From the NCBI GenBank assembly GCA_018221305.1, contig JAAOYK010000055.1, forward strand, positions 1 to 59,656: DNA of 59,656 nucleotides, read 5' to 3'. Below, in pieces: positions 22,096 to 37,005 of the stretch (the stretch's first letter is position 1; each line of letters starts with the position of its first letter). The stretch comes from Candidatus Pacearchaeota archaeon (GTDB lineage: Archaea > Nanobdellota > Nanobdellia > Pacearchaeales > GW2011-AR1). The translations under genes and the position numbers were made by a program. Below the pieces are notes generated by a model. The model searched no databases, had not been told where the DNA came from, and was given only the letters and a program-made list of their open reading frames with translations.

Positions 22096-22809
22096 TTACT
22101 CTTTAACCTCAAAACTTGTTAATGCTTCTTGTTCCATAAAATGAAGCTCGCCAGGAACTACAAAACAAAAAGGTGATTTTACTTTTTGTTTTTTTAATTG
22201 ATCAAGTGTTCCGTAAAAAATTGTTGACTTTTTTGTACCTAATTTTCTGCATAAAACAATTTTGTCTAATTCAACATTTTTATCTTTTGCACATTTGTCT
22301 AATTGTTCAATAGCTTTATCTATTGGAAGACCAATATCAACCAAAAGCAAAGTATGCGCTTCAATACTTTTGTTTTGTTTAACATATTCCATAAAGTCTG
22401 GATTATATCCTTTGTCCCAAGTAGGCATACTACTTATTTTACCAAACTTGTATAACTGTAATCCTGTCTCACCGATTGCATCAAATACTGACGCTGCCTG
22501 AACAATTCTTGTTTTAACGTTTGCCTTTCTTGCGTCCATTAATAATGTAATATGTGTTGTTGCAAAAAGTGGTGCGCCATAAACCAAAAGTGCAACATTT
22601 TCTTGCTTAGCTTCATTGATTAGTTTGTCTGATTCAACATCTCCGCGAGCTAAATTAATAATACTTTCATCAATCCCGAGATCTGTTATGTCATAAGGAA
22701 AATCTACGGTATAATTTTCAAGATAAACTTTATCACACTTTTCAATAGACCTGACTGCGTCTAATGATAATCCATGTTCACTTAGTCCTAGGCCAATTAG
22801 GTATAACAT
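22096..22809 (-). CDS. dph5: diphthine synthase
   Basis: N-terminus MLYLIGLGL...KCDKVYLENYT is typical of the tetrapyrrole-methylase-fold Dph5. This is an archaeal/eukaryal-specific gene. Confidence 0.85.
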   Translation of the reverse strand: MLYLIGLGLSEHGLSLDAVRSIEKCDKVYLENYTVDFPYDITDLGIDESIINLARGDVESDKLINEAKQENVALLVYGAPLFATTHITLLMDARKANVKTRIVQAASVFDAIGETGLQLYKFGKISSMPTWDKGYNPDFMEYVKQNKSIEAHTLLLVDIGLPIDKAIEQLDKCAKDKNVELDKIVLCRKLGTKKSTIFYGTLDQLKKQKVKSPFCFVVPGELHFMEQEALTSFEVKE

Positions 22810-22855: not shown

Positions 22856-23806
22856 TTAGCAACTAAAAGTAGGATCGTATGGGGCTGGTAAGTGATCATT
22901 ATCAATATGTAGGTCTGAGAACCTACAATCAAATGATGTTGGCATTCCGACATCTGTACTATTAAAATATCTATAATCAACTAAAGTTTTTGTTGTCACA
23001 GTAACTCCTAGGTCTGATAAATTCTCAGGATTTATTAAAGATTCAATCCCATAACCTCCAGGGTTTGCAGAAAGATCTCCTTGAAGACGCTGTAAAAAAC
23101 TTGGCGCGTCATTATGTGCTATGTAATACGAATTTTTCCAGTGTTTTTCAAATTCATTATCATCAGTAAAATCAGGATGAATTGTCTTCAAAATCTTGTT
23201 TGTAACTCTTCCTTCTGTTTCCATATAATATATTGGGTCTTCAAAATTTGTTACAGGGATATAAACATCAAGGTCTATGTCTCTATTCCATGAGGCAAGT
23301 CCTGCATTATCTTTTATTGCTATGTCAACTTGTAAATTAACTTTTACTTTCCATGGATCATCTTGGCTTATTGTAAACTCTGGCACAGAACTATTAGACA
23401 CGTTTGCATTAATTTTTGCACCTGTTTCACTCATCTGGGTCATGATGTCATTAAAAGTAACCCCTTCCATTAAATCTAACCCGCCTTCATAACTTCCGTT
23501 ATTCATTGTTCCGTTAAACATCATTTCAGAAAAATTTCCTGGAATGTCTGAAATGTATTCATTTTCTTCAACAATTCGTTTTTCAAACAAAAAGATTACT
23601 CGAAATCCTGAGATATACAATTCTCGCTCTAAATCTTCTTGCACAGAAAATACAAAATTGTTAAGTGTCTGTATTCTTTTATTTACTGGTTCTCTGTCTT
23701 TTGTAATCGAATAAAATCCGTACGATAAGACAAAAAGTGATAGCAGCAAAATTATAAGCATTGTAAAAAACATGCCTTTTTTATTTTTTATTATGTTAAA
23801 TATCAT
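22856..23806 (-). CDS. pilin-like/pilus-associated protein (class III-type N-terminus)
   Basis: KNKKG|MFFTMLIILLLSLFVLSYGF. This is the last gene of the 6-gene minus-strand pilin operon. Confidence 0.5.
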   Translation of the reverse strand: MIFNIIKNKKGMFFTMLIILLLSLFVLSYGFYSITKDREPVNKRIQTLNNFVFSVQEDLERELYISGFRVIFLFEKRIVEENEYISDIPGNFSEMMFNGTMNNGSYEGGLDLMEGVTFNDIMTQMSETGAKINANVSNSSVPEFTISQDDPWKVKVNLQVDIAIKDNAGLASWNRDIDLDVYIPVTNFEDPIYYMETEGRVTNKILKTIHPDFTDDNEFEKHWKNSYYIAHNDAPSFLQRLQGDLSANPGGYGIESLINPENLSDLGVTVTTKTLVDYRYFNSTDVGMPTSFDCRFSDLHIDNDHLPAPYDPTFSC

Positions 23807-23832: not shown

Positions 23833-26800
23833 TTAGTCCCATCTCCTTATTTGAACCTCTGTTGACCACTCATACGGTATCCCTTCAAGCCTTGTAGAGG
23901 ATATCTGAAAATTGTCTTGAGTAAACTTAACATCAACTAATCTGTCATCATTAAAATCTAATGAGTTTAATAGGTTAAATGCTGCAATTTTTAATGAATC
24001 GTTTGTTAACGGTGCAAGTGATGAATTACAATAACCATCTCCACATTCACTATGTTTTGCTCCTCCAAAATAACATTTTTCTCCAAGATTATACGAGTCG
24101 GGTATTGGTAGATCATTTTCAGTACTTCCGTCAAAAAATTCTATTGTCCAGTCGCATCCCTCTGCATCATTAGATATTGCAGAGTATGCTTCTAATTTTT
24201 TTATCAGTGTTACTAATATGCTGTTATCTATTGACCCTTCACTATTTTGGTTTGGCTCTAGACCAGTATTCATCCGAACAATGTTTATATTAGCATTTTT
24301 GTTAATCATTGATGTAGGAATGTTTACTGCATAAGGATCTCCTAATTTAAGAAAAAAGTTTTGATATTCTCCAAGATCATAAGCTGTTTCGTACGGATTA
24401 CCATTATCTCTAATAAATACTTCGTTAGTCCAAAACGGGCCTGAATATGATATAACTTTTGCATCCAAAATTTTAAAATCTTTAGGCACAGTAAAATTTC
24501 CATGACGCGTGTCATTAAATGGCCAGTTTTGAGTCACAACAAGTCCTGCATTTCTATCTCTTAGATAATCAAACTCAATGTATGAATCAGGATCTAAGTA
24601 TGAATAAAATTGTCCAACAATTTCTAATGTCTGTTTTCGATATGTTGCATTCATTATATCATTTGCTATTTGCGCATAAAGCGCTTCAAGACCTCCCACA
24701 TTTCCAATATAATCAATACCATTCCCGCAAGTTGGTTCAACCATTTGTTCGAGTGTAATCTTTGCGCTTGCAGGTGCATTAAACGCTACTGTATATACTT
24801 TGATCCCGTATTTTTGATATGCCCTGCATGCAGCTGCAACAGCATAATCCGCAGGAAAATTTATACCAGCGATATCTGGAACATATCCCATTTCAGCACA
24901 CGGTTGAGTCGCCGAACCATCAGTCATAACAACCATAAATTTATCTCTGCCTTCTGATTCACATGTAGAAGAGCATCCGTCCCCATTTATTATATTACCG
25001 TCGTCACATTCTTCAGTACTATTTTTATAATCATCTCCACAAGTTTCTGAAAAATAGCATGCATTAAATGTTCCTGCAGCAGTGCATGAATGATAACCTT
25101 CATTTTCTAAAGCATCATAACACGTAACTCTATCTCCGTCACAAACTTCTCCTACTTCTACAATACCGTTATCACCACCTGCTGACTGATCATAAAGACC
25201 GCTTATTTCTGCAGGTGTTAATGTTTTGTCATAAAGTCTTACTTCATCAATAAATCCTTCAAAAAAGTCTGTTGGTGTATAATCAAAATCATCATCATAA
25301 TCTTGCCCAATAGTAAAATTTGTGTCAGGGCTTACAACTGTAAATCCTGCAGGTCCATCTATATCTGAAGTCCTTCCAGTAAGGTTATGTGTATAAACAT
25401 CTACATCATCAATATACATTTTAATAAATCTTGCATCAAAATCATAAGTCATAACAATATGATGCCAATTAGAATCTCTTATTGAAATAGCAGTGTCATA
25501 ATATTTATTATCCGTCTTAAGGTTTAAGTTATTAGTAACATCTCTAATCATTGCTCTGATGTCGTAAAACTCATCACTATTTTCATCCCACATCTTTATA
25601 TGATCTTGATAAAATGCAAATAATGTATCTTTATCAGAACCTGCATCACTTTTTGCCCAAAGTGATACTGAAAAATCATTATTACTTATATCCCCATTTT
25701 TTGTTATATATTTTGTAAAAAAGTCTGCTACAATATAATCATCACCACTCATTTTTAATGAATTACCTTCAATAACGTCAACAAGATCCGCAGAATATTC
25801 TTCTGTTCCTTTAAAGATTCCATCATTTCCTAAAGGACCTTTATCATCTGTAGTATTATCATCAAAGTCATAATAAGCAACCAACCCTGTAGATTTTGGT
25901 TGTACAAATTCCCAAACAGCCCTGTTTACTCCAGAACAAATATTTGTTCTTCCAACATCTCTCCAAGGAGAAACTTCTGCTTTTAATGATGTCTTATCAT
26001 CTGATAATTCATGATATTCTGTGTTACTTACATAAGATCCATAACCATTAACTCCTACTCTATTATTTCCAATTGCAGGATTCGTATCATTTAACATTAC
26101 ATCAATCAATCTTTTTGTCGCTCTTATTGATTCTGACATCTTAGAATTATAATCAGTCGCACTTCCCATACTTCCTGATAAATCATTAACCGAAACAACG
26201 TCAATATCTGCTTCAACTTGTGTAATTAATGATGAAGCATTTTTTATGCCTAACCTTACTGGAACAGTTGTTCGCGAAATTTTAGAATAATTAATTTGTG
26301 CATCAAAAGCAGCATCTGTTATTTTTTTAGTTACAAGACCTACAGCTTTTGTAGTAATATCTGTTGTGTTCCCTAGTTCAAACGTTTTGTTACCAATTGC
26401 CAAAAATATGTCAAGACTACTATTAAACCTGATACTTGCGTTCATTTTGTTTATTTGTCCAGGGATATAAAATCCATCATAAACATTTAAAAATCCTTCA
26501 ATCCCAGGAAAATAATATTTTTTTGGTTGTTCATACTCGTCTAATGGGTCATAAATAATCTTTAGATATCCTCCAGCAATATGCAACTTTTCTGTAGCAC
26601 TATGCAGCTTCACATAATCAACAGATTTACCAAACTGATCTAACCTGTTGTTTGGAATAGTGCATGTGCTAGGTGTAAAGTCATTTACTGCTGCACTACA
26701 TGAAATCATTTTTCCAGGGTTCACTGGCGGGTTTATTGAAACTTTAAAATTATAAGGTATTGTGTGCACTATTTCTGCGCTTTGTATTGTACCATTAAAA

Positions 26801-27351
26801 TCTACTCTAAGAGTTAAATCACCTTCACCAACATAACCGCCAAAATAAAAATGTTTTGTTCTGTTAAGCGCGCTCAAAAATGCTCGCGCAGAATATCCAG
26901 TTATTCCTTTATCACTTATCCCACTAATAACATGACGTTCTACATCAATATTTTTTGCAGCTGCTAAAGAAAACGGCGTATTATTATTTTTTGCAGCAAC
27001 ACATTTATTGTCATACCAAATCCCAATTTTTTCTTTTGTCTTTAACTGATTTAATGTTATATTAGCAAGCTCTACTGCCTTTTCTCTGTCTCCTTGAGAA
27101 ATAAAAATTCCAATTTGTTCAATTATTGTTTTGGATCCATCAGTAACATCACCATCATTTATCCACTGAGTAACTGTTGCGTTATTAATTTCTCCAATTT
27201 TTAAAGTTGTTAAAACTCTTATCAAATCTCCTTGAATCTCAGACCTTTTCTGTGAAGATTTTACAATTGGGAACGCAACCGTTAAAACAATAATTATTAT
27301 TGATAATGCGATTAACGCATCCATACTAAAAAATGCACCTCTTTTTTTCAT
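23833..27351 (-). CDS. giant pilin-like adhesin: class III signal peptide + vWA domain interrupted by LamG(Laminin_G_3)-like and Cys-rich-repeat modules
   Basis: The N-terminus is MKKRG|AFFSMDALIALSIIIIVLTVAF. The MIDAS motif is DLSGS (aa 390-394), with VVMTDGSA at aa 807-814. The LamG_3 signature is FSVSLWAKSD...NWHHIVMTYD...FEGFIDEVRLYDKTLTPAEISGLY. The Cys repeat is ETCGDDYKNSTEECDDGNIINGDGCSSTC. It is collinear with the paralog at 27356..29818 apart from a ~320-aa insertion. Confidence 0.8.
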   Translation of the reverse strand: MKKRGAFFSMDALIALSIIIIVLTVAFPIVKSSQKRSEIQGDLIRVLTTLKIGEINNATVTQWINDGDVTDGSKTIIEQIGIFISQGDREKAVELANITLNQLKTKEKIGIWYDNKCVAAKNNNTPFSLAAAKNIDVERHVISGISDKGITGYSARAFLSALNRTKHFYFGGYVGEGDLTLRVDFNGTIQSAEIVHTIPYNFKVSINPPVNPGKMISCSAAVNDFTPSTCTIPNNRLDQFGKSVDYVKLHSATEKLHIAGGYLKIIYDPLDEYEQPKKYYFPGIEGFLNVYDGFYIPGQINKMNASIRFNSSLDIFLAIGNKTFELGNTTDITTKAVGLVTKKITDAAFDAQINYSKISRTTVPVRLGIKNASSLITQVEADIDVVSVNDLSGSMGSATDYNSKMSESIRATKRLIDVMLNDTNPAIGNNRVGVNGYGSYVSNTEYHELSDDKTSLKAEVSPWRDVGRTNICSGVNRAVWEFVQPKSTGLVAYYDFDDNTTDDKGPLGNDGIFKGTEEYSADLVDVIEGNSLKMSGDDYIVADFFTKYITKNGDISNNDFSVSLWAKSDAGSDKDTLFAFYQDHIKMWDENSDEFYDIRAMIRDVTNNLNLKTDNKYYDTAISIRDSNWHHIVMTYDFDARFIKMYIDDVDVYTHNLTGRTSDIDGPAGFTVVSPDTNFTIGQDYDDDFDYTPTDFFEGFIDEVRLYDKTLTPAEISGLYDQSAGGDNGIVEVGEVCDGDRVTCYDALENEGYHSCTAAGTFNACYFSETCGDDYKNSTEECDDGNIINGDGCSSTCESEGRDKFMVVMTDGSATQPCAEMGYVPDIAGINFPADYAVAAACRAYQKYGIKVYTVAFNAPASAKITLEQMVEPTCGNGIDYIGNVGGLEALYAQIANDIMNATYRKQTLEIVGQFYSYLDPDSYIEFDYLRDRNAGLVVTQNWPFNDTRHGNFTVPKDFKILDAKVISYSGPFWTNEVFIRDNGNPYETAYDLGEYQNFFLKLGDPYAVNIPTSMINKNANINIVRMNTGLEPNQNSEGSIDNSILVTLIKKLEAYSAISNDAEGCDWTIEFFDGSTENDLPIPDSYNLGEKCYFGGAKHSECGDGYCNSSLAPLTNDSLKIAAFNLLNSLDFNDDRLVDVKFTQDNFQISSTRLEGIPYEWSTEVQIRRWD

Positions 27352-27355
27352 TTGT

Positions 27356-29818
27356 TTACCTCCACGTTCTTATTTGTACCTCTGTTGACCAACTATAGGG
27401 AATCCCCATAATCTCATTAGATCCAATATCAAAATTTTGATCAGTGAACATTACATCTAATAGCCCATCATTATCAAAATCTAATAACTTTAATAATCTA
27501 TATGTTGCAATCTGAACAGCATCATTACTATTTTCACAATTACTACCGTCACAGTTCATGCCTCCAAACGTATTATTTCCATAATTACAATTTATTCCGC
27601 CAGAATAATTTAATGGTATTGCTAAACTTTGGTTTGATCCGTCATTAAAATATAATGTCCAGTCACAACCTTGCGAGACTGGGGAAAGTTTTGAGTAAGC
27701 AATCAGGTTTGTTGAGATTGTATATATTACTTTGTTGTTTATTGATCCTGGTGAATGGTTTCCTGGATAAAGTCCTGTCGTAAGGTTGATAGTGTTTGGG
27801 CTTGCTAGTGAAACTAAATATGTAGGAATATTAACAACATATGGGTCTCCAAGTTTTATATATTCGTCTCCATACTCTTCCAAATCATATATTGTATTAT
27901 TATTCATAGTTAATCTGTTTGTCCAACGCGGACCAGAGTATGATATAACTTGCGTGTTGATAACTGTAGAGTTTGGAGGTATCTGAAACGTTGCTGTGTA
28001 TGGGTCATCAAAAGGTTCTTCAATTGTAGCAATTAATCCTGTATAAGTATCTCTGTCATACCCAAACTCAATGTACGAATCCTCTGTAAGGTTTGTTCGG
28101 TAACTTCCAGACTGTACGATTATTGTTTGTTTTTTGTATGCCAAATTTATTATATCTTCTGCAACTTTTTCATAAATACTTACTAAATCATCAATATCAC
28201 TTTCATAATAAGTTCCATTCCCGCAAGCCGCAATAGGTATCAGGTTTGCAGTCTCAACTATCTTTCCAAAACCTACAACATTTATCATTATTTCATGATT
28301 ATTCCATGCATCACATGCAGCATCTATTGCGTCCTGTACACCGTCAGCAGTGCTACATCCTTGGTTTGCTTTCCCACTACCCATAACAACTACTGACCTA
28401 AAATTATTAGGATCTGACTGCGCCAAAAGATAATTTACTCCTGCTTCTATGCCGCAACATAAACAATCATTTTCACCAAGATTTGTGTCAACCCAGCTTT
28501 CATCTAGTTTGTCATACAATGTAGATTTAGTATTAGTTAATTCTAGATAATTTTGTGGGTATACTGCCGTTTTATATCCCACAAGCCCTACGTTTGTTGT
28601 TGATTCGTTTAATAACATGTCAATAAGTCTTTTATTTGCATGATATGACTGATTGATAAGTGTTGTGCTGTACCCTGCCCCAAGATTTTTGTTCATTTCT
28701 CCTGAAAGGCTTGAGACAGAATAAACATCAGCTTCAACATTTCCTCCTAAGACATAAGAAGCGTTTAATATACCAAAACGCAACGGAACTGTTTTTCTAC
28801 TTAAATCACTATAATCAAGCAAAGAATCAAGTATTGAATCATCTATGACAATGTTTTCCATCCCACTTGTGTTTCCTTGATAAACTGTAACATTTCCTAT
28901 TGTTAAAAAAGTAGATACTTCACTATCAAAGTTCAAATTAATGTCCATTGTGTTTAGTGTACCTGGGATATAAAAACTATCATAAAGGTTCATAATACCT
29001 TCAACCCCTGGAAAATAATATCTTTCAGGTTCTTCATATTCAATAGCACTATCATAAGTAACTTTTATGAAACCTCCTGCAATGTGTAAGCTTTCGTCCA
29101 AAATTTCTATAATGTTTACACCTGAATTAAAATCAGTTATAGGAAGTGTATATGTTCTTGGCGTAAAGTCATCAACAGACTTTTCATAAGCTCCAGCAAA
29201 GTTTGAGTTAACATACACACTAAAATTTTTATCAATTGCAAGCTCCATTGTTGCACTACTAATATTTCCGTTGTATTCAATACGCGCGCTTAAATTTCCT
29301 TCACCAACATATCCTCCAAAATAAAAATATTTTGTTTGCATTGTATTTTTTAAAAATGCTCGTGCAGAATATCCTGTTAAAGAGCTTCCATTACTAATAC
29401 CTGAAACTGTCTGACGTTCTACCCCTACTTGGACAGCGTCACTGTATGGTGTGTTATTCATTGATGCAAGAAGCGTGTTTCCATACCAAATCCCTATATT
29501 TTCTGTAGTGTTTAAGTTTGATAATATTGCTGTTGCAAGTCCTTGTGCTAACGTAATATTTGTAACATAAAATTCTCCAATTTGTTCTAATATGTTTTTG
29601 TTATAATCAGTGATTTTTCCTTGAGCTTTTAGATTATCAACATAAGCATTATCAATCTCTCCGATCTTTAAAGAAGATAAAACCCCTTGAAAATCTCCAC
29701 TAATGTCAGAATCTTGGTTGGAAAATTGAATAATTGGTATTGTAAATCCTACAACTATTAAAATTATTATAAGTGCTACTAATGCGTCGAAGCTAAAATA
29801 TGCTGCTCTTTTTTTCAT
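27356..29818 (-). CDS. giant pilin-like protein: class III signal peptide + vWA-like domain with degenerate MIDAS
   Basis: The N-terminus is MKKRA|AYFSFDALVALIIILIVV. It aligns end to end with 23833..27351 (for example GYSARAFL, YFYFGGYVGEG, LHIAGG, YYFPG.EG, ISYSGP.WTN, KLGDPY.VNIPT, QGCDWT, GIPY.WSTEVQIR). The MIDAS position reads SLSGE instead of DLSGS. A DFDNDGLLD Ca-binding-like loop lies near the C-terminus. Confidence 0.75.
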   Translation of the reverse strand: MKKRAAYFSFDALVALIIILIVVGFTIPIIQFSNQDSDISGDFQGVLSSLKIGEIDNAYVDNLKAQGKITDYNKNILEQIGEFYVTNITLAQGLATAILSNLNTTENIGIWYGNTLLASMNNTPYSDAVQVGVERQTVSGISNGSSLTGYSARAFLKNTMQTKYFYFGGYVGEGNLSARIEYNGNISSATMELAIDKNFSVYVNSNFAGAYEKSVDDFTPRTYTLPITDFNSGVNIIEILDESLHIAGGFIKVTYDSAIEYEEPERYYFPGVEGIMNLYDSFYIPGTLNTMDINLNFDSEVSTFLTIGNVTVYQGNTSGMENIVIDDSILDSLLDYSDLSRKTVPLRFGILNASYVLGGNVEADVYSVSSLSGEMNKNLGAGYSTTLINQSYHANKRLIDMLLNESTTNVGLVGYKTAVYPQNYLELTNTKSTLYDKLDESWVDTNLGENDCLCCGIEAGVNYLLAQSDPNNFRSVVVMGSGKANQGCSTADGVQDAIDAACDAWNNHEIMINVVGFGKIVETANLIPIAACGNGTYYESDIDDLVSIYEKVAEDIINLAYKKQTIIVQSGSYRTNLTEDSYIEFGYDRDTYTGLIATIEEPFDDPYTATFQIPPNSTVINTQVISYSGPRWTNRLTMNNNTIYDLEEYGDEYIKLGDPYVVNIPTYLVSLASPNTINLTTGLYPGNHSPGSINNKVIYTISTNLIAYSKLSPVSQGCDWTLYFNDGSNQSLAIPLNYSGGINCNYGNNTFGGMNCDGSNCENSNDAVQIATYRLLKLLDFDNDGLLDVMFTDQNFDIGSNEIMGIPYSWSTEVQIRTWR

Positions 29819-29888: not shown

Positions 29889-30434
29889 TTATTCTTCCCA
29901 AATGTAAAGATAAGCCGTAATCGGTTTATTTTTATATATTGTAAACCGTGTGATTTTCACCAGGTTTTTTGCATTAGAATAAACATCTTTTCCGATGACA
30001 GGGTTTGTAGCAGGATTATTATCTCCATCTAGATTCATATCTTCTTCTAAAAAAAATCTGTACTCATAACGTGTATTAAAAACCTTTTTTGTAAATGTAT
30101 AATTGCCATTACCATCACTATTATCACTTAAGTCCCAAAACGCTTGAAGCTTTTTGTCATCAATCTTGTTTGACGAGTTTAAAATTCCAATTTTCATTAT
30201 ATTGTTATGATCAGCAGTAGCTAATGGTACCAATGTCTCCCAATTTGTAGGATAACCTTCAGACATTAAAGAGTCCATTACAAGTTTTCCATTATGATAT
30301 AAGTATTCAAACTTTTCCTTAGTATCTCCTGGACTGTTTAATGTGTAGATAAAGAAAAGCATTATGCCAAACGTGAACAATGTTACAGCTACCATTAAAT
30401 CTATGCCCCATGTTTGTGCTTTTTTATTTTTCAT
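29889..30434 (-). CDS. pilin-like protein (class III signal peptide)
   Basis: MKNKKA|QTWGIDLMVAVTLFTFGIMLFFIY. Confidence 0.55.
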   Translation of the reverse strand: MKNKKAQTWGIDLMVAVTLFTFGIMLFFIYTLNSPGDTKEKFEYLYHNGKLVMDSLMSEGYPTNWETLVPLATADHNNIMKIGILNSSNKIDDKKLQAFWDLSDNSDGNGNYTFTKKVFNTRYEYRFFLEEDMNLDGDNNPATNPVIGKDVYSNAKNLVKITRFTIYKNKPITAYLYIWEE

Positions 30435-30446
30435 TGCTTACTGTTT

Positions 30447-30878
30447 TTAAGGTACTAATGTAATAGATATTACTTCCCCTGTTTTGCTTATCTTGTTTTT
30501 ATCAGGGTTTGTGTTTAGTGTAAAAGGGTTTGTAGCAACATTAACTTCTGCTATAGGTAACATTAGTGAATGAGCATTATCTGTTGTTTTTACATAAACA
30601 GCATTATCAGAAATTTGTACATCATACGTTTTACCATCAATTCTTGCAGGAAGCGTAAACTCACGTTCATATCCATTTGCAGCTTTTACTGCCAAGGAAA
30701 TCTCGTTTTGTACTTCTAGTGCCACTTCATTAGTTAACAAGTCCCGTTTTTCATTTATTCTATCAAAGTTAACTTCATATATTGTGACAACCAAAATAGT
30801 AAAGAAAAAAAACACTGCACCAAAAACTATTATGAACTCAATACCTACTTGTGCTTTTTTTTTGTTTTTTTTTATCAT
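30447..30878 (-). CDS. archaeal pilin, DUF361/EppA-substrate-like (Q at +1, E at +5)
   Basis: MIKKNKKKA|QVGIEFIIVFGAVFFFFTILVV. There is a 4-nt ATGA overlap with the upstream pilin gene. Confidence 0.65.
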   Translation of the reverse strand: MIKKNKKKAQVGIEFIIVFGAVFFFFTILVVTIYEVNFDRINEKRDLLTNEVALEVQNEISLAVKAANGYEREFTLPARIDGKTYDVQISDNAVYVKTTDNAHSLMLPIAEVNVATNPFTLNTNPDKNKISKTGEVISITLVP

Positions 30879-31318
30879 CCTTGACTAATAACTGCATGAC
30901 TTGCGTCTGCTTCGATAATTATCATTTTCACACCAGATGCTATTGTTATTGGATTTGAACTATCTATCATAATAGGTACATCAGATTTAAAAGATAACTT
31001 TTGCTCTCCTGAAGATGCTGTAATATTAATCAATAGATAATATAATCCATTATAATACACAGCATCTATACCACTAATCCCTTCTGGAAGGAATGGGTAA
31101 ATTGTAGCTTTTGATGGCTCTCCTGCATAAAATACTGTCCTAGAAGCGCCGACTACTTTATTTCCAAAATTATGTATTTGTGTTTCTTTTAATTGATCAC
31201 CTGAGGTTGTGCTATAATAAAGTCCAATACCAAGAATGCCAGTTATAATAATTGTTAAAAATCCTACAAGTATTAAATACTCCATACTTACCTGCGCTTT
31301 ACTAGAAATGTTTTTCAC
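30875..31318 (-). CDS. archaeal pilin, DUF361/EppA-substrate-like (Q at +1, E at +5)
   Basis: MKNISSKA|QVSMEYLILVGFLTIIITGILGI. This is the first gene of the operon. Confidence 0.65.
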   Translation of the reverse strand: MKNISSKAQVSMEYLILVGFLTIIITGILGIGLYYSTTSGDQLKETQIHNFGNKVVGASRTVFYAGEPSKATIYPFLPEGISGIDAVYYNGLYYLLINITASSGEQKLSFKSDVPIMIDSSNPITIASGVKMIIIEADASHAVISQG

Positions 31319-31443: not shown

Positions 31444-32361
31444 ATGGCAAAAGAGGTGATAAAAGTAGTAACTATTGGGAGCTTAGCATTTCTAGGATTA
31501 ATTTTTGTTAACACTATCCTTTTGTTTTTAGGTCATGAAAGTTCTCCTGGGATTACTGGTAATTCTGTTGCTGACAGTTTAAAAGAGGTTTATACAGAAA
31601 TGTCACTAGCGTCAAAGATTTTCTTGTTAGTACAGTTCATTGCATTATTAATAATTTTTATTTATTTTATTATTAAAGCAAGAAAATCTATTAAAGAACG
31701 TGACGAAATTGCTCATTTAAATGTTGTAAAAAATCCTGGAGGATCAAAGACTGATATTGACACGTTATATGAAATTTTAAAAGATAGAAAACAAATAAAC
31801 ATTCCATCAGTTGGTAAAGCTTTTCGTGTTAGTAAAGAGTTAGCAATGGAATGGTGTCGTATTTTAGAAAATAATGATTTAGCAACAATTGATTATCCTG
31901 GTTTTATTGGAGATCCTTCAGTAAAACTTGCTGTACCAGAATCAGAAAAAAGTAAAGACAAAAAAGATAAAGATAAAGACAAAAAATCAGACGATAAAAA
32001 GGACGATAAAAAGGATGATAAAAAAGATGATAAAAAAGATGAGAAAAAGATAGATAAAAAAGATGTGGACGAGAAAAAGGATGATAAAAAGCCTGACCAA
32101 GATAAAACTAATGTAGAAAAACCTACTGAAACTGCTGCCCAAAAACCAAAAAAACGTTTTAATATATTTAAAAAGAAAAAGCCATTAGACACTTCAGTAC
32201 CTGTAGCACAAAATGTAGGGGTTACAGACAAAGATAAAAAATGGGTAAGTGAGGCAATAAAAAAAGGATTAAATGAAAAAGATGTTAGTAAATTATTGCA
32301 AGGGTTAGAAAAAAGTAAAAGAGAACAAATTGTTAATTATTATAAATCTGTTTCAAAATAA
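31444..32361 (+). CDS. pilus-locus membrane protein: 2 TM + globular segment + poly-(K/D) linker + C-terminal ~40-aa helical module
   Basis: The TM segments are VVTIGSLAFLGLIFVNTILLFLG and IFLLVQFIALLIIFIYFII. A KDDKK-type low-complexity tract covers aa 169-218. The C-terminal WVSEAIKKGLNEKDVSKLLQGLEKSKREQIVNYY is shared with the N-terminus of 35932..37005. Confidence 0.6.
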   Translation: MAKEVIKVVTIGSLAFLGLIFVNTILLFLGHESSPGITGNSVADSLKEVYTEMSLASKIFLLVQFIALLIIFIYFIIKARKSIKERDEIAHLNVVKNPGGSKTDIDTLYEILKDRKQINIPSVGKAFRVSKELAMEWCRILENNDLATIDYPGFIGDPSVKLAVPESEKSKDKKDKDKDKKSDDKKDDKKDDKKDDKKDEKKIDKKDVDEKKDDKKPDQDKTNVEKPTETAAQKPKKRFNIFKKKKPLDTSVPVAQNVGVTDKDKKWVSEAIKKGLNEKDVSKLLQGLEKSKREQIVNYYKSVSK

Positions 32362-32392: not shown

Positions 32393-34069
32393 ATGGCAAG
32401 AAAAAAAGTAATAAAGAAAAAAAATATAAAAAGAAAAGTTATCAAACGTAAAACTGCAAACGTAGTAAGGACAAAAGTTCGAGCCTCTAGGCCGGTTGTA
32501 CCAAAAAGACTTCCAAGCACATCAAACCCTATGCAGTCAGCAATTAAAGGTCATGTGTCTCAAAAGCCTGAAAAAAGACGTCCAGAAGTTCTTGAAAGAT
32601 ATTTTATTGAGGCAGAAAAATCTAAAATAAAGATTGAGATCCAGAGAAGAGGTACAACAACGACTTATGTTGTCGAGGCACCAAAAATTAATGAAGCTAC
32701 AGCAGCCCTTCTTGATGAGGTTAGGGATGAATTAGTTACTGCAACATCTGTTGGAATGAACGAAATCATGGACTCTGGAGCTATTAAAAATATGAAGAAA
32801 CGTTTTGGTATTGAGGCAGGAACTTTAATAGCAAAAAAATTGCCTCATATTAATAAAGATACTCAAAGTATCCTGGTTAACAAATTAATGCAAGACATGC
32901 TTGGTCTAGGCGAGATTGAATTTTTAATAAATGATCCTCATTTAGAAGAAATAGTTATTCCTTCATCAAAAGAAACAATACGCACGTATCATAAAAAGTA
33001 TGGCTGGCTTCCAACAAATCTTCGCATTGCTCGTGAAGATGAAATTGTTAATTATTCAAACATTATAGCGCGTCGTGTTGGACGACAAATTACAGTGCTT
33101 ACACCATTGCTTGACGCTCATTTAGTATCAGGTGATAGAGTAAATGCTATACTTTACCCAATAAGTAGTAAAGGTAACACTATAACTATCAGAAAGTTTG
33201 CACGTGACCCTTTTACAGTAATAGACCTTATAACAACAAAAACTTGCAGTGTTGAAGTTACTGTACTTTTATGGCTTGCTATTGAGTATGAGATGAATGT
33301 TTTAATTTCAGGAGGTACAGCGTCAGGTAAAACCTCACTACTTAACGCATGCATTCCTTTTATTCCTCCAAATCATAGAATTATTAGTGTAGAAGATACC
33401 CGTGAATTAATGCTTCCTGAATTTTTATACTGGACACCTCTTGTTACACGTACTCCTAATCCTGAAGGTAAAGGGGAAGTTTCAATGTTGCATTTATTAG
33501 TAAACTCACTGCGAATGCGTCCAGACCGTATAGTTTTAGGTGAAATGCGGCGTAAAGAAGAAGCAATGGTTTTATTTGAAGCAATGCATACAGGACACTC
33601 AGTGTATGCTACTCTTCATGCAAACACTGTTGCAGAAACGTTGTCGCGTCTTACAAACCCTCCACTAAGTGTTCCTGCAAACTTATTGTCAGCAGTTAAT
33701 CTAAACGTTGTAATGTTTAGAGATAGGAGACGAGGGATACGGCGTGTCTATCAAGTAGGTGAATTTAATGTAAGCAATGACCGGGCAGAAGCAAACATTT
33801 TATATCGATGGAGTCCTGAAGAAGACAAAATATTAAAACATACAGATAACATGCGAGTCTTTGAAGATATTGGTAGAAATACTGGAATGGGTCGCGCACA
33901 GATTAATAGAAATTTGGAAGAAAAAAAGTTTATTATTAACTGGATGATAAAAAATAAGTTCAGATCTTTAGAAGATTTTGGTAAAGTCATGCAACAGTAT
34001 TATGGTGACAAAGAATTTTTAATAAAAAATATTAGGGCTAATAATAGTAAAGCAATAATTGGGAGATAG
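32393..34069 (+). CDS. type IV pilus/archaellum assembly ATPase (ArlI/FlaI-PilB-VirB11 family) with polybasic N-terminal extension
   Basis: Walker A is SGGTASGKTSLLNA. Asp/Glu boxes include IISVEDTRELMLP. Walker B is RPDRIVLGEMRRKEEA, and the His box is HTGHSVYATLHAN. The N-terminal ~65 aa are Lys/Arg-rich (MARKKVIKKKNIKRKVIKRK...). Confidence 0.85.
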   Translation: MARKKVIKKKNIKRKVIKRKTANVVRTKVRASRPVVPKRLPSTSNPMQSAIKGHVSQKPEKRRPEVLERYFIEAEKSKIKIEIQRRGTTTTYVVEAPKINEATAALLDEVRDELVTATSVGMNEIMDSGAIKNMKKRFGIEAGTLIAKKLPHINKDTQSILVNKLMQDMLGLGEIEFLINDPHLEEIVIPSSKETIRTYHKKYGWLPTNLRIAREDEIVNYSNIIARRVGRQITVLTPLLDAHLVSGDRVNAILYPISSKGNTITIRKFARDPFTVIDLITTKTCSVEVTVLLWLAIEYEMNVLISGGTASGKTSLLNACIPFIPPNHRIISVEDTRELMLPEFLYWTPLVTRTPNPEGKGEVSMLHLLVNSLRMRPDRIVLGEMRRKEEAMVLFEAMHTGHSVYATLHANTVAETLSRLTNPPLSVPANLLSAVNLNVVMFRDRRRGIRRVYQVGEFNVSNDRAEANILYRWSPEEDKILKHTDNMRVFEDIGRNTGMGRAQINRNLEEKKFIINWMIKNKFRSLEDFGKVMQQYYGDKEFLIKNIRANNSKAIIGR

Positions 34070-34075
34070 ATTTTT

Positions 34076-34960
34076 ATGAAATTTAGAATTCCATTTACTT
34101 TTTCGGACATTGATAAGTTGAAGCGAAGGTCTTCATTTATTTCTCAAAGGATTAAAAGGAAAAAAAATTCAAAACTTAAAGAAGAACTTGAAAGTGCTGG
34201 TATTGATATAACACGTGAAGAATATATAGGTGTTTGTCTTAGAAATTTGATTATAATTTTTATTTTCACTTTTGTTGTTGCTACTTCATTTTTCGCAGTA
34301 GCAAACCAGAAAATTTTTTACATCTTAGGCCCAGGAGTAGCCTTAGTAATCTCTTCTTTTTTATTTTTTATGCAGATAATGTTTCCAAAACTTTATATTA
34401 CAAAAAAACAAAAAGATATTGAACGTAACTTGCTTTATGCATTAGAAGACATTTTGATTCAATTAAACTCTGGTGTACCTCTTTTTGACATTTTGAGAAA
34501 TATTTCATATGCAAACTATGGAGTTTTAAGTGACGAATTTAAAAAAGCAGTACATCGTATAAATTCAGGCGAGCCAGAAGTTGCGGTTCTGGCAGATATT
34601 GGAAAACGTAACCCGTCTGTCTTTTTAAAACGTACATTATGGCAAATAAGTAATGGTCTTAATGCAGGAAGTGACATGTCTTTAATTGTTCGGGACAGTA
34701 TAAAAACTTTAAATGAAGAACAATTGATTCAGATCCAAAGTTATGGTAACAAATTAAATCCATTAATAATGTTTTATATGTTGTTATCAGTCATTGTCCC
34801 TTCTTTATCTGTAACTTTTTTAACAATTTTGGCATCAATGGCTGGCATGAATAAGCAGATAACGATAGGTGCTTTTGCAGGACTTTTTTGTTTTGTAGTC
34901 TTGTTTCAAATAATGTTTTTAGGTCTTATTAAATCACGTCGTCCAAGTTTGTTAAGTTGA
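34076..34960 (+). CDS. pilus platform membrane protein, single T2SSF domain (TadB/TadC-like half of ArlJ/PilC)
   Basis: The cytoplasmic helical T2SSF-like segment (LLYALEDILIQLNSGVPLFDILRNIS...SDEFKKAVHRINSGEPEVAVLADIGKRNPS) is flanked by TM helices. Confidence 0.75.
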   Translation: MKFRIPFTFSDIDKLKRRSSFISQRIKRKKNSKLKEELESAGIDITREEYIGVCLRNLIIIFIFTFVVATSFFAVANQKIFYILGPGVALVISSFLFFMQIMFPKLYITKKQKDIERNLLYALEDILIQLNSGVPLFDILRNISYANYGVLSDEFKKAVHRINSGEPEVAVLADIGKRNPSVFLKRTLWQISNGLNAGSDMSLIVRDSIKTLNEEQLIQIQSYGNKLNPLIMFYMLLSVIVPSLSVTFLTILASMAGMNKQITIGAFAGLFCFVVLFQIMFLGLIKSRRPSLLS

Positions 34961-35886
34961 AAAAAATGAATTATAGAAAAAAAATATCACGTCTTACAGA
35001 AAAGGAAAAGAAAACATTAAGACGTAGACGTCTGTCTACAATTATTTTAGCTATCTTAACAAGCTTTGTTTTGTTTGCAATCTATAGGACTCCTTTAATA
35101 CCAATCATTGGCTTTTTTAGTGCAATTGTTATAATCTTTTTATTTTTTCATTTTAGTGACGGTTTTAAAAAATCTGGACGTATTAATAAGATGGAAACAG
35201 TTTTTCCAGACTTTTTACAGTTAGTGTCGAGCAACCTTCGGGCTGGAATGACTGTTGATAAATCAATAATGCTTGCCGCACGTCCAGAGTTTGCACCTTT
35301 AGACGAAGAAATTATACAGACAGGTAAAGATATAACAACTGGCAAAAATATTGAACGAGCATTAAAAGATTTGTCATATCGTATAGGTTCTGATAAGATC
35401 GGAAAAACAATTTTAATAATCATTTCAGGTATTAGGGCAGGAGGAGACATTGCAGTACTTTTAGATGAAACAGCTGGTAACATGCGTTCACGAGAATTTG
35501 TAGCAAAACGTGCAGCATCACAGGTCTTAATGTATGTAATTTTTGTATTTTTTGCTGTAGCTGTCTTTGCACCAGGCTTGTTTGCTTTGTCAAATGTTTT
35601 AGTTTTTACAATGGATAATCTGATAGGAGACATTGATACAAGCGCTGTTCAAGGATCCAGTTATATATCTTTTCAAAAGATTAGTGTTTCTTTAGACTTT
35701 ATACTATATTATTCAATAATTTTTATAGTATGTATTGATATTTTAGCATCATTAGTTATTGGCTTGGTTAATAAAGGTGAAGAACGTGAAGGTCTCAAAC
35801 TTCTTCCTTTTATGATAGGACTAAGTCTTGGATTATTTTTTCTGTTAAAGATTGTAATATCCAATATAATGGGAAAACTAATTTAG
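34957..35886 (+). CDS. pilus platform membrane protein, single T2SSF domain (second half)
   Basis: FPDFLQLVSSNLRAGMTVDKSIMLAARPEFAPLDEEIIQTGKDITTGKNIERALKDLSYRIGS is flanked by TM helices. The track uses a TTG start at 34957, which overlaps the upstream stop. The first ATG is at 34966. Confidence 0.75.
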   Translation: MKKMNYRKKISRLTEKEKKTLRRRRLSTIILAILTSFVLFAIYRTPLIPIIGFFSAIVIIFLFFHFSDGFKKSGRINKMETVFPDFLQLVSSNLRAGMTVDKSIMLAARPEFAPLDEEIIQTGKDITTGKNIERALKDLSYRIGSDKIGKTILIIISGIRAGGDIAVLLDETAGNMRSREFVAKRAASQVLMYVIFVFFAVAVFAPGLFALSNVLVFTMDNLIGDIDTSAVQGSSYISFQKISVSLDFILYYSIIFIVCIDILASLVIGLVNKGEEREGLKLLPFMIGLSLGLFFLLKIVISNIMGKLI

Positions 35887-35931: not shown

Positions 35932-37005
35932 ATGGCTCGAAAAAAAGTTGTAAAAAAGAAATCTAAAAAGAGAACATTAAAAAAACGTCCAACCAAAAAA
36001 AGAGTTGCAAAACCAAAAGTTGATACTTTTGGGCTTGATAATGAAAGTCTTTCTTGGGTAAAACAATCAATAGATAAAGGTTTTGAACGCGCGCAAGTTG
36101 AAAAATTATTAAAAGACGTTGACGCAAGCCAAAAACAAAAAATGCTTTCATATTATGATGCTTTAAATAAGATCCCTGACAGTAGCGAATCTTCTATGCA
36201 AGAGACAGTTAGTGCTTCAGAACCAGTCGCAGAAAAAAAATCTGCTCCGATTAGTAGTTATGAACCAGAAATCAAGCCAACAAAAGCTCGCGGTCATAAA
36301 GTTCCAAGCGGAATTTTAGGTCTTGACAAGTTAACTCATGGAGGATTTGAAAACCATTCAACAAACCTTTTGGTCGGAGGAAGTGGTACTGGGAAATCAA
36401 TATTTTCTATTCAGTTCTTGGTTGAAGGCGTTAGAAAGGGTGACAGATGTTTATATATTACTTTTGAAGAACGTAAAGGAGAATTTTATACTAATATGAA
36501 AGAACTTGGCTGGGATCTTGCAAAAATGGAGAAAAATAATAAATTTTATTTTTTGTCTTACACTCCTGAAAAAGTAAAAACAATGCTTGAGGAGGGCGGC
36601 GGAGAAATTGAAAGTATGGTATTAACAAATAAAATCAACCGTATTGTAATTGATAGTATTAATGCATTTATCATGATGTTTGATAATGACCTGCAACGTC
36701 GTGAAGCGTCTTTAAAACTATTTTCTCTGCTTAGAAACTGGAACAGTACTTCAGTTTTAATCTATGAACGTGACCCTTTGGTTGACAAAAGATCTTCTTC
36801 CAGAGTGCTCGAGTTTGAATCAGACTCACTCATCTTTCTGTACTTTGTTCGCTTAAGGCGTCAACGAGAACACTTTATGGAAGTTTTTAAAATGAGAGGC
36901 TCAAATCATTCAAAAGAGATCCATCCTTATGTTATTACTAAGGGTGGTATAAAGGTTACAACAGCCCCTTACGCAGGAAATCTTGACAAGTTTAGGACTG
37001 TGTAA
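35932..37005 (+). CDS. KaiC/ArlH(FlaH)-like RecA-superfamily ATPase with polybasic N-terminus and ~40-aa helical module
   Basis: Contains SGILGLDKLTHGGFENHSTNLLVGGSGTGKS (Walker A) and RIVIDSI (Walker B), with a KaiC-like single-domain length (~230 aa). The N-terminus MARKKVVKKKSKKRTLKKRPTKKR precedes WVKQSIDKGFERAQVEKLLKDVDASQKQKMLSYY. Confidence 0.8.
   Translation: MARKKVVKKKSKKRTLKKRPTKKRVAKPKVDTFGLDNESLSWVKQSIDKGFERAQVEKLLKDVDASQKQKMLSYYDALNKIPDSSESSMQETVSASEPVAEKKSAPISSYEPEIKPTKARGHKVPSGILGLDKLTHGGFENHSTNLLVGGSGTGKSIFSIQFLVEGVRKGDRCLYITFEERKGEFYTNMKELGWDLAKMEKNNKFYFLSYTPEKVKTMLEEGGGEIESMVLTNKINRIVIDSINAFIMMFDNDLQRREASLKLFSLLRNWNSTSVLIYERDPLVDKRSSSRVLEFESDSLIFLYFVRLRRQREHFMEVFKMRGSNHSKEIHPYVITKGGIKVTTAPYAGNLDKFRTV

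Follow-up and report, generated by a model that had tools for sequence, protein, structure and literature searches.

Tandem giant vWA proteins beside a type IV pilus locus of a pacearchaeal contig, one with a laminin G-type module nested in its vWA domain

The window analysed here is a stretch of 59,656 nucleotides (nt) from an archaeal contig of ~31% GC (JAAOYK010000055.1, assembly GCA_018221305.1, Candidatus Pacearchaeota archaeon). Two giant open reading frames (ORFs) lie back-to-back on its minus strand with a spacing of 4 nt (Table 1). Their products, of 820 and 1172 amino acids (aa), are referred to below as SHORT and LONG, respectively. An initial annotation made from the sequence alone had described the pair as tandem paralogs in which a pilin-like N-terminus is fused to a vWA domain; both ORFs lie where it placed them, and the two proteins are confirmed as collinear tandem paralogs. 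Pairwise BLASTP returns two blocks, LONG 1–479 against SHORT 1–461 (43% identity, E = 6e-105) and LONG 804–1171 against SHORT 474–819 (40% identity, E = 1e-75), and the shared sequence blocks listed earlier are all present (GYSARAFL, YFYFGGYVGEG, LHIAGG, YYFPGxEG, ISYSGPxWTN, KLGDPYxVNIPT, GCDWT and GIPYxWSTEVQIR). Between the two blocks, ~324 aa of LONG (aa ~480–803) replace a 12-aa loop of SHORT (aa 462–473). As the blocks are collinear, the surplus of LONG is a single contiguous insert, as had been proposed, and the nt interval 24946–25902 originally assigned to it corresponds exactly to aa 484–802.

The insert interrupts a vWA domain. In Pfam scans the domain is split in LONG, with positions 3–85 of VWA_2 matched at aa 387–478 and positions 102–149 of VWA at aa 801–869, each half scoring below its cut-off; in SHORT it is contiguous (aa ~362–560) and is matched above the cut-off (VWA at aa 396–549, E = 1e-7, 32.9 bits). 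The family profile aligns with the solved vWA structure 4rck over the whole domain (E = 6e-10) and, marginally, with the vWA of the pilus-tip protein Mfa5. An AlphaFold2 model of LONG was built on an 80-sequence alignment, with a mean predicted local distance difference test score (pLDDT) of 77.6. In this model, the canonical vWA order (βA-α1-βB-βC-α2-α3-βD-α4-βE-α5-βF-α6) is broken once, at residues 484–801. The elements before the break are βA (382–390), α1 (404–421), βB (431–437), βC (446–450), α2 (453–460) and α3 (471–483), and those after it are βD (802–810), α4 (833–848), βE (850–857), α5 (861–870), βF (880–883) and α6 (885–902). A Foldseek search of the Protein Data Bank (PDB) with the model retrieves the vWA domains of ITIH1 (1e-6) and Mfa5 (1.8e-4); the Mfa5 alignment has 551 columns for a 296-residue target and therefore bridges the insert. 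The order of elements in the model, the Foldseek matches and the 4rck profile match all show a vWA fold flanking the insert. The module thus lies inside the vWA domain, as first described; the site itself, which had been placed between two strands, is the connection from helix α3 to strand βD in the secondary structure of the model.

The metal-ion-dependent adhesion site (MIDAS) differs between the two copies. In the columns of the 80-sequence alignment it is intact in LONG (D390/S392/S394, T469 and D811) and dead in SHORT (S370-x-S372-x-E374, D and S481), in agreement with the earlier reading of one intact and one degenerate site. The full motif is present in 73 of the 80 homologs. A separate subgroup of single-copy proteins with a dead MIDAS also exists; P0057 (at locus L003) is a single-copy member of the family with such a site. 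By the established vWA topology, the α3–βD connection is on the face opposite the MIDAS, so that the module in LONG would form a second, separate site on that face rather than act as a modifier of the MIDAS pocket. LONG is a clear-cut natural example of an entire domain placed within the α3–βD loop of a vWA domain.

The insert holds a laminin G-type (LamG) domain followed by a Cys-rich segment. The Pfam family Laminin_G_3 is matched at LONG aa 551–717 (E = 1.8e-18, 67.5 bits against a cut-off of 27.6; E = 1.6e-19 when the insert is searched alone), and TIGR02232 (myxo_disulf_rpt, the Myxococcus cysteine-rich repeat) is matched at aa 769–800 (37.3 bits against a cut-off of 20.8). The LamG signature and the Myxococcus-type repeat recognized in the initial annotation therefore both score above the curated thresholds, and the former is also found in LamG-type Foldseek matches. 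On the lectin side, the matches of the LONG model in the PDB are domain 4 of AbnA (2e-8), BoNT/NTNH Hc-N, the lectin domain of a trans-sialidase, the carbohydrate-binding module (CBM) CBM40 of NanA and pentraxins; in the BFVD viral library they are LamG-type phage proteins only. Pfam DUF4215 remains below its threshold on LONG (E = 3e-4, 19.9–21.4 bits against a cut-off of 27), and the Cys-rich segment is 70% identical to the repeats of a DUF4215 protein (P0122). A homology search with the insert only returned mainly DUF4215 repeat proteins; the closest LamG matches were ~30% identical, and no donor protein was found.

The concanavalin A-like superfamily to which such jelly-rolls belong includes glycoside hydrolases, and the Foldseek matches include domains of a glycoside hydrolase family 43 (GH43) arabinanase and of sialidases. 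The inserted module might then be an enzyme (a jelly-roll of glucanase type that attacks glycans of the host envelope) or a stiff strut held by the disulfide-rich repeat rather than a lectin. We regard this as very improbable: the parts matched in AbnA, the trans-sialidase and NanA are non-catalytic binding domains, and the Pfam matches (Laminin_G_3, Laminin_G_2, Pentaxin and Sialidase-like_CBM) are all binding modules.

Both giants begin with the layout of a class III signal, a short basic leader ending in G or A followed by a hydrophobic helix. With a slash marking the putative cleavage site, the N-termini read MKKRG/AFFSMDALIAL in LONG (MKKRG/AFFSMDALIALSIIIIVLTVAF) and MKKRA/AYFSFDALVAL in SHORT (MKKRA/AYFSFDALVALIIILIVVGF), and the consensus of the giant family is [KR][GA]/xFFSxDALIAL. 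Residues F7, F8, D11, A12, I14 and A15 are each at least 90% conserved among 80 homologs, and the helix spans residues 9–31 in the LONG model. This degree of conservation, together with a buried acidic residue, is what would be expected of a pilin helix that docks into a filament rather than of a plain membrane anchor. N-x-S/T sequons are in excess in both giants (21 against ~12 expected, p ~ 0.005), and the two proteins contain 19 and 10 Cys residues; these features fit an extracellular, glycosylated archaeal surface protein. An intracellular regulatory vWA protein of the ArnB type (Makarova et al., 2016) was considered and ruled out by the N-terminal signal helix, the excess of N-glycosylation sequons and the many Cys residues.

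The remainder of the scaffold consists of β-rich domains on either side of the vWA domain. The C-terminal domain contains invariant columns in the family alignment, is modelled with confidence (pLDDT of 85–92) and has no PDB match among the top 50 Foldseek matches of the full-length model. It carries a DxDxDG-type loop (LDFDxDGxxDV in the family alignment, a putative metal loop), represented by DFDNDGLLD at aa 780–788 of SHORT. The initial annotation had read this motif as an FG-GAP/EF-hand-like Ca loop distinguishing SHORT; the Pfam scan gives no FG-GAP match, and the loop is kept across the family and is not peculiar to SHORT. In the public protein collection, LONG is present only as a 492-aa C-terminal fragment (P0121, equal to aa 682–1172, with Met replacing I681 as the start), which corresponds to 23833–25311 on the minus strand. 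The deposited gene call for this ORF thus appears to be truncated, and the full 1172-aa product is not on record.

Class III-signal proteins are encoded in a conserved cassette of five genes, of which the giants are the large members, and the cassette lies beside a pilus ATPase gene, two platform genes and a KaiC-like ATPase gene (Table 1). Three small ORFs lie directly upstream of SHORT and a 316-aa ORF lies downstream of LONG, all on the same strand with gaps of 0–70 nt, and the ATPase and platform genes are within 3–6 kb of the giants. The class III signal matches of the neighbouring cassette proteins are below threshold (E = 8.5e-4 and 0.075). The layout [~140 aa][~130 aa][~160 aa][giant vWA][~310 aa] recurs in five loci from unrelated metagenome-assembled genomes (MAGs; L001–L005) and in most of the 58 GTDB loci with enough flanking sequence. 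In 55 of these 58 the next gene downstream of the giant is an ORF exceeding 200 aa (~303–324 aa where its size is listed). The ATPase and platform genes also accompany the giants in L001–L003 and L006, and the KaiC-like neighbour does so in L001–L003. The N-terminal motifs of the cassette proteins are conserved family by family, with Glu at +5 or Asp at +6, and in other loci the N-terminus typical of cassette protein C (K[GA]Q/xWGxD) belongs to the protein encoded immediately upstream of the giant. A scan of the cassette for bacterial-type promoters and terminators gave hits at the level expected from shuffled sequence; the models are bacterial and not applicable to archaea.

Table 1. Features of the giant-protein locus. 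Positions are those of the window; a slash in a sequence marks the putative cleavage site.
Feature	Position (nt)	Strand	Basis
SHORT, 820 aa; same scaffold as LONG	27356–29818	−	ORF list
LONG, 1172 aa: helix resembling a class III signal, jelly-roll-like scaffold, split vWA with LamG + Cys-rich insert, conserved C-terminal domain	23833–27351	−	
LONG aa 1–31: basic leader ending in G, then hydrophobic helix; conserved Asp at +6	27259–27351	−	Sequence; model
LONG aa 36–375: helical segment and β-rich N-terminal scaffold (GYSARAFL, YFYFGGYVGEG, LHIAGG, YYFPGxEG)	26227–27246	−	Model
LONG aa 380–483: vWA N-terminal half (βA, DLSGS MIDAS loop, α1, βB, βC, α2, T469, α3)	25903–26214	−	
LONG aa 484–801: module in α3–βD loop of vWA	24949–25902	−	BLASTP gap against SHORT
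LONG aa ~490–722: LamG/concanavalin A-like jelly-roll	25186–25884	−	Laminin_G_3; Foldseek
LONG aa 737–800: Cys-rich segment, eight Cys (737–797), including CGDD...ECDDGNIINGDGCSSTC repeat	24952–25143	−	TIGR02232
LONG aa 802–903: vWA C-terminal half (βD with MTDGS, α4, βE, α5, βF, α6)	24643–24948	−	
LONG aa 904–1172: conserved C-terminal β-rich domain (ISYSGPxWT, LGDPYxVNIP, GCDW, GIPYxWSTEVQIRxW)	23836–24642	−	
LONG aa 1132–1140: DFNDDRLVD, Ca-loop-like motif	23932–23958	−	
Cassette protein A, 147 aa: KA/QVSMEY, Glu at +5	30875–31318	−	Class_IIIsignal E = 8.5e-4, below cut-off; position and N-terminus conserved elsewhere
Cassette protein B, 143 aa: KKA/QVGIEF, Glu at +5	30447–30878	−	DUF7266 E = 5e-6, weak Class_IIIsignal match; synteny
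Cassette protein C, 181 aa: KKA/QTWGIDL, Asp at +6	29889–30434	−	Sequence
Cassette protein E, 316 aa: NKKG/MFFTMLII, no acidic residue; directly downstream of LONG	22856–23806	−	Sequence
Type IV pilus assembly ATPase (T2SSE, PilB3_C-like)	32393–34069	+	PF00437 E = 5.5e-35
Two platform genes (TadC/FlaJ-like, T2SSF)	34076–34960, 34957–35886	+	PF00482 E = 3e-14, 7e-14
KaiC/FlaH-like ATPase	35932–37005	+	PF06745 E = 6.5e-55

From the N-terminus, the domain content and this gene neighbourhood, we consider it probable, though by no means certain, that the giants are modular extracellular adhesins associated with the pilus of this archaeon, a member of the Woese-/Pace-/Nanoarchaeota group of the DPANN. 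The label of putative pilin rests on the N-terminal signal and helix and on synteny, and several results weigh against this assignment. Neither giant matches the curated pilin and class III signal hidden Markov models (HMMs; PF04021 and PF07790) at E ≤ 0.1. Matches to Class_IIIsignal, Pilin_N, N_methyl and the TadG and PilY1 families in Pfam and NCBIfam are not significant, and the sole hint of a relation is ComGE at E ~ 0.01. When the N-terminal 376 aa of LONG were modelled alone (pLDDT 74.5), the top 50 Foldseek matches in the PDB contained no pilin fold, only weak matches of jelly-roll or glycoside hydrolase family 2 (GH2) sugar-binding-like type (TM-score < 0.22). No gene for a prepilin peptidase (Peptidase_A24) is found among the window ORFs of at least 110 aa, despite at least nine class III signal-like proteins, and an uncleaved signal anchor is an equally plausible reading of the N-terminus. 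The lectin part is affected as well: the LamG domain has low pLDDT values (38–86) in the LONG model, against 85–95 in the scaffold domains, and by canonical topology an insert emerging opposite the MIDAS would be unable to tune that site directly.

These observations bear on whether the giants might instead be membrane-anchored surface proteins or adhesins associated with the surface (S-) layer, held by an uncleaved signal anchor and co-regulated with the pilus genes while remaining outside the filament. The failure to detect a pilin fold and the lack of significant class III or pilin HMM matches fit such an arrangement, and proteins of 820–1172 aa with several globular domains are bulky for filament subunits. 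Segments 139–161 and 274–287 could be cited in the same sense; they are confident in the full LONG model but lose confidence in the model of the N-terminal part alone. The helix motif with its invariant Asp is nevertheless conserved far beyond the needs of a plain anchor, all four cassette neighbours share the type of N-terminus (two of them with the pilin hallmark Glu at +5), and even distant genomes keep the giants strictly linked to the genes for the ATPase and the platform proteins. Bacteria, moreover, provide documented cases of bulky modular pilins and tip proteins (PMC8179133, PMC11870444). On balance, surface anchoring outside the filament seems unlikely to us. The parallel originally drawn with TadG and PilY1 is strengthened by the pilus-gene context and weakened by the lack of detectable homology and of a recognizable pilin fold.

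The family is large. A word-indexed search gave at least 379 matches, GTDB contigs (one genome per species) contain 313 relatives, nearly all from Woese-, Pace- or Nanoarchaeota MAGs, and a search of 1.84 billion representatives gave 501 clusters at 50% identity (E ≤ 1e-30; 800–2031 aa). The homologs of both giants are named Pacearchaeota, Woesearchaeota or Nanoarchaeota. JGI metagenome contigs scanned with patterns derived from LONG yielded no relative.

When the homologs are mapped onto SHORT, their length differences cluster at two places, here called sites A and B. Site B is the α3–βD loop (SHORT aa 457–473), which is a 12-aa loop in ~50 of the 80 aligned sequences and otherwise holds inserts of about 185–205, 220–350, 435–447 or 689 aa. 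In the GTDB loci, the spacing from α3 to βD falls into separate classes of 16–28 aa (n = 43), 199–212 aa (n = 11), 255–355 aa (n = 17) and 454 aa (n = 1); no intermediates occur, which argues for discrete modules and against gradual loop growth. Scanning of 32 site-B inserts found Laminin_G_3 in 19, Sialidase-like_CBM in 11 and DUF4215 repeats in ten. The modules identified at this site are all jelly-roll binding domains, either a Sialidase-like CBM of ~185 aa or a LamG domain of 245–340 aa with or without Cys repeats. Related genomes thus carry different modules at the same site, a check suggested in the initial annotation: the loop may be empty, hold one of these two modules or hold inserts of 435–690 aa. 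Site A immediately follows the DxSxS motif; many members have a mini-insert of 30–55 aa there that is often Cys-rich, and P0072 and P0112 (1727–1731 aa) have ~900 aa with Laminin_G_3 and three CARDB domains. For the 1.84 billion representatives, the points at which matches break are clustered at aa ~376–393 and ~459–473 of the query. The α3–βD loop is therefore a family-wide insertion hot spot, with a second one after DxSxS. On a neighbour-joining tree of the scaffold, which has long branches, insert-bearing and insert-free proteins are interspersed, indicating repeated gain or loss.

The giant is single-copy in most genomes; besides the window, four GTDB loci (L006/L007, L014, L046 and L073) contain tandem pairs. 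Of 200 neighbour-joining bootstraps, 187 place LONG and SHORT as sisters, and tandem copies within a genome are 50–74% identical in the N-terminal domain, from which it seems that duplication happened independently in several lineages. The members of a pair often differ in the middle, with a LamG domain against no insert (the window and L014), or a LamG domain against another vWA domain with another large insert (L006). A dead MIDAS as a general trait of one tandem copy was examined and rejected: both copies keep DxSxS in L006, L014, L046 and L073, and only SHORT of the window has lost its MIDAS.

The L006 pair deserves a separate description. The tandem partner of the closest LamG ortholog is a paralog of 1139 aa (L006, 4051–7470, plus strand) of which the domains at the N- and C-terminus are 61–64% identical to those of its neighbour. 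A different vWA domain (IDSTGSM ... LTDAPPH) occupies its middle, and the large insert of this domain is located elsewhere. To judge from this pair, the whole middle of the scaffold is apparently exchangeable.

The LamG part is also more divergent than its surroundings. Among 26 LamG-bearing orthologs its mean identity is 28%, against 46–52% for the scaffold parts, and on these identities it is the faster-evolving part of the protein. Pairwise LamG and scaffold distances have a rank correlation of 0.06–0.11 and a Mantel r of 0.45 that is driven by close pairs, the signal being saturated at ~28% identity.

These family data can be set against the proposal that the giants mainly prime, cap or regulate pilus assembly (by nucleation, envelope passage or force sensing), with the vWA and LamG domains serving assembly or mechanosensing, a role that would be compatible with adhesion. 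The five-gene cassette does resemble minor-pilin/PilY1 and GspH–K sets, and it includes a 316-aa protein without an acidic residue. The tip-most protein of the latter set, GspK, lacks the acidic residue. The single-copy member with a dead MIDAS (P0057) indicates that MIDAS binding is not always needed, and both CpaL and PilY1 have been implicated in surface sensing (PMC11870444). Rapid turnover of lectin modules at two loops, however, is expected of a ligand-binding surface and not of an assembly factor; the low identity of the LamG part relative to the scaffold and the intact MIDAS in most members point the same way. A principal role in assembly is in our view quite unlikely.

We therefore return to the pilus-associated adhesin, for which the following mechanism can be proposed. 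A prepilin peptidase would cut after G5 in LONG or A5 in SHORT, and the hydrophobic helix would dock the giant, along with the four small proteins of the cassette, in a complex that primes the pilus or forms its tip, comparable to those of TadG/CpaL, PilB/PilC or the PilY1–minor-pilin complex. By analogy with these systems, the giants would probably be located at the tip. The MIDAS face of the vWA domain would bind an acidic protein ligand through a divalent cation, and the LamG domain would contribute a glycan-binding site of its own on the bottom face, opposite the MIDAS. The tandem copies would then represent two adhesin variants, one with a lectin and a live MIDAS and the other with no lectin and a dead MIDAS, that could serve attachment to host cells or surfaces. 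Incorporation into the pilus, ligand binding and adhesion, like the diversification of binding specificity envisaged in the initial annotation, are what we infer from the domain content and gene context.

A more far-reaching version of this proposal takes the α3–βD and post-DxSxS loops as cassette sites at which DPANN lineages gain, lose and exchange complete lectin-type modules, with tandem copies holding alternatives, so that the pilus-tip protein of these episymbiotic archaea would be a swappable host-range determinant, much as phages swap receptor-binding modules. We put this forward tentatively, as a possibility that is rather doubtful at present.

Several known systems are comparable to the giants, and the relation to TadG, PilY1 and bacterial pilins is best described as one of analogy, not homology. 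CpaL/TadG is a minor pilin fused to a vWA domain and has been modelled at the tip of the Tad pilus (PMC11870444). Like the giants, it has a hydrophobic pilin-like N-terminus followed by a vWA domain, and its gene shares a Tad-type locus (an ATPase with a TadB/TadC-type platform) with those of small minor pilins. The giants, in contrast, have no match to Tad or TadG families in Pfam or NCBIfam at E ≤ 0.1, are twice as large, have additional conserved N- and C-terminal β domains and in many cases carry a lectin inside the vWA domain. In the modular pilins of Streptococcus sanguinis, PilB combines a pilin with a vWA adhesin and PilC a pilin with a concanavalin A-like lectin, and PF13385 is among the commonest modules of bacterial modular pilins (PMC8179133). 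The class III signal, the placement of a binding module on a filament-docking N-terminus and the module types (a vWA domain with a MIDAS and a concanavalin A-like lectin) are common to both. LONG differs in holding both modules in one polypeptide, with the lectin nested in the vWA domain and not joined end-to-end. The giants are also archaeal, lack a recognizable pilin globular module and have an N-terminal motif without the bacterial N-methylation signature.

Insertions in a vWA domain are known from the sortase-pilus tip adhesins RrgA, GBS104 and PilA, in which two variable inserted arms are thought to shape ligand specificity (PMC7893114). These pilus-tip adhesins resemble LONG, a putative one, in having highly variable elements inserted into a MIDAS-bearing vWA domain. 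In RrgA the arms, on the MIDAS face, are elaborated hairpins or loops, whereas LONG carries a complete LamG domain of ~230 aa and a Cys-rich repeat on what is by canonical topology the opposite face, and the pilus type and anchoring chemistry are unrelated.

The locus as a whole resembles in composition the archaeal clade-1 pilus loci, in which two TadC genes, at least five class III proteins and two large DUF2341 proteins modelled as tip adhesins have been described (Makarova et al., 2016, PMC4858521); 'System 1' loci have been reported in methanogens and some DPANN (2026 preprint, 10.64898/2026.04.22.720090), and LamG-like proteins have been linked to pilus loci in DPANN (Golyshina et al., 2017, PMC5498576). 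One ATPase, two TadC platform genes, at least five class III-signal proteins and two large secreted, predicted tip proteins are shared with the window. None of the window proteins has a DUF2341 match in Pfam, however, and a vWA core with a MIDAS and a nested lectin is not described for those loci, the vWA proteins of the census being only cytoplasmic regulators of the ArnB type. PilY1/PilC of Pseudomonas and Neisseria is likewise a large vWA protein that works with a minor-pilin set, and its C-terminal Ca-binding loop may be compared with the DxDxDG-type loop in the C-terminal domain of the giants; the Ca site of PilY1 was reportedly described by Orans in 2010. PilY1, with its C-terminal β-propeller, is no pilin, whereas the giants carry their own class III-type N-terminus; the PilC/PilY1 propeller has no Pfam match in the giants and is not found among the Foldseek matches of the LONG model.

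In a literature search we found no paper describing this vWA family or a nested lectin-in-vWA architecture. The pilus-associated modular adhesin is a known kind of protein; what is new here is that a vWA loop contains a full lectin domain and behaves as a module slot across the family, and the 'modular pilin' idea is extended from bacteria to archaea. The Woese-, Pace- and Nanoarchaeota are abundant, almost wholly uncultivated and thought to be host-attached. The giants combine two classic types of adhesion module and are concrete, expressible candidates for host recognition in this major uncultivated archaeal group, and the type of insert offers a marker to correlate with co-occurring hosts in metagenomes.

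Other features of the window touch on the pilus locus. On the minus strand, the interval 69–2196 contains four small ORFs (167, 156, 185 and 180 aa) whose N-termini resemble class III signals, as in MKQNKKKG/VSPIIATVLLILIV and MRKQKKA/QSQVIATVLLILIV. Their matches to Pfam Pilin_N are not significant (E = 0.5–4.7), and they may be candidate (major) pilins of the organism. Directly upstream of the pilus ATPase gene, at 31444–32361 on the plus strand, is a gene for a 305-aa protein with one transmembrane helix and a long, low-complexity tail rich in Lys, Asp and Glu; in L001, L003 and L006 the same position is occupied by an ORF without a significant Pfam match (a weak TM2 match in L006). Directly downstream of the cassette, at 22096–22809 on the minus strand, is a gene of the TP_methylase family that resembles diphthine synthase, and one is found close downstream in L005. 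A gene of the diphthamide pathway has been linked to clade-1 pilus loci (Makarova et al., 2016, PMC4858521), and its presence beside the cassette may be coincidence.

Two further observations concern the rest of the window. A 793-aa ORF at 51913–54294 on the minus strand has no Pfam match at E ≤ 0.001. The signal recognition particle (SRP) RNA at 2260–2517 on the minus strand matches the model Bacteria_large_SRP (62.4 bits, with a gathering score of 60) on an otherwise archaeal contig.

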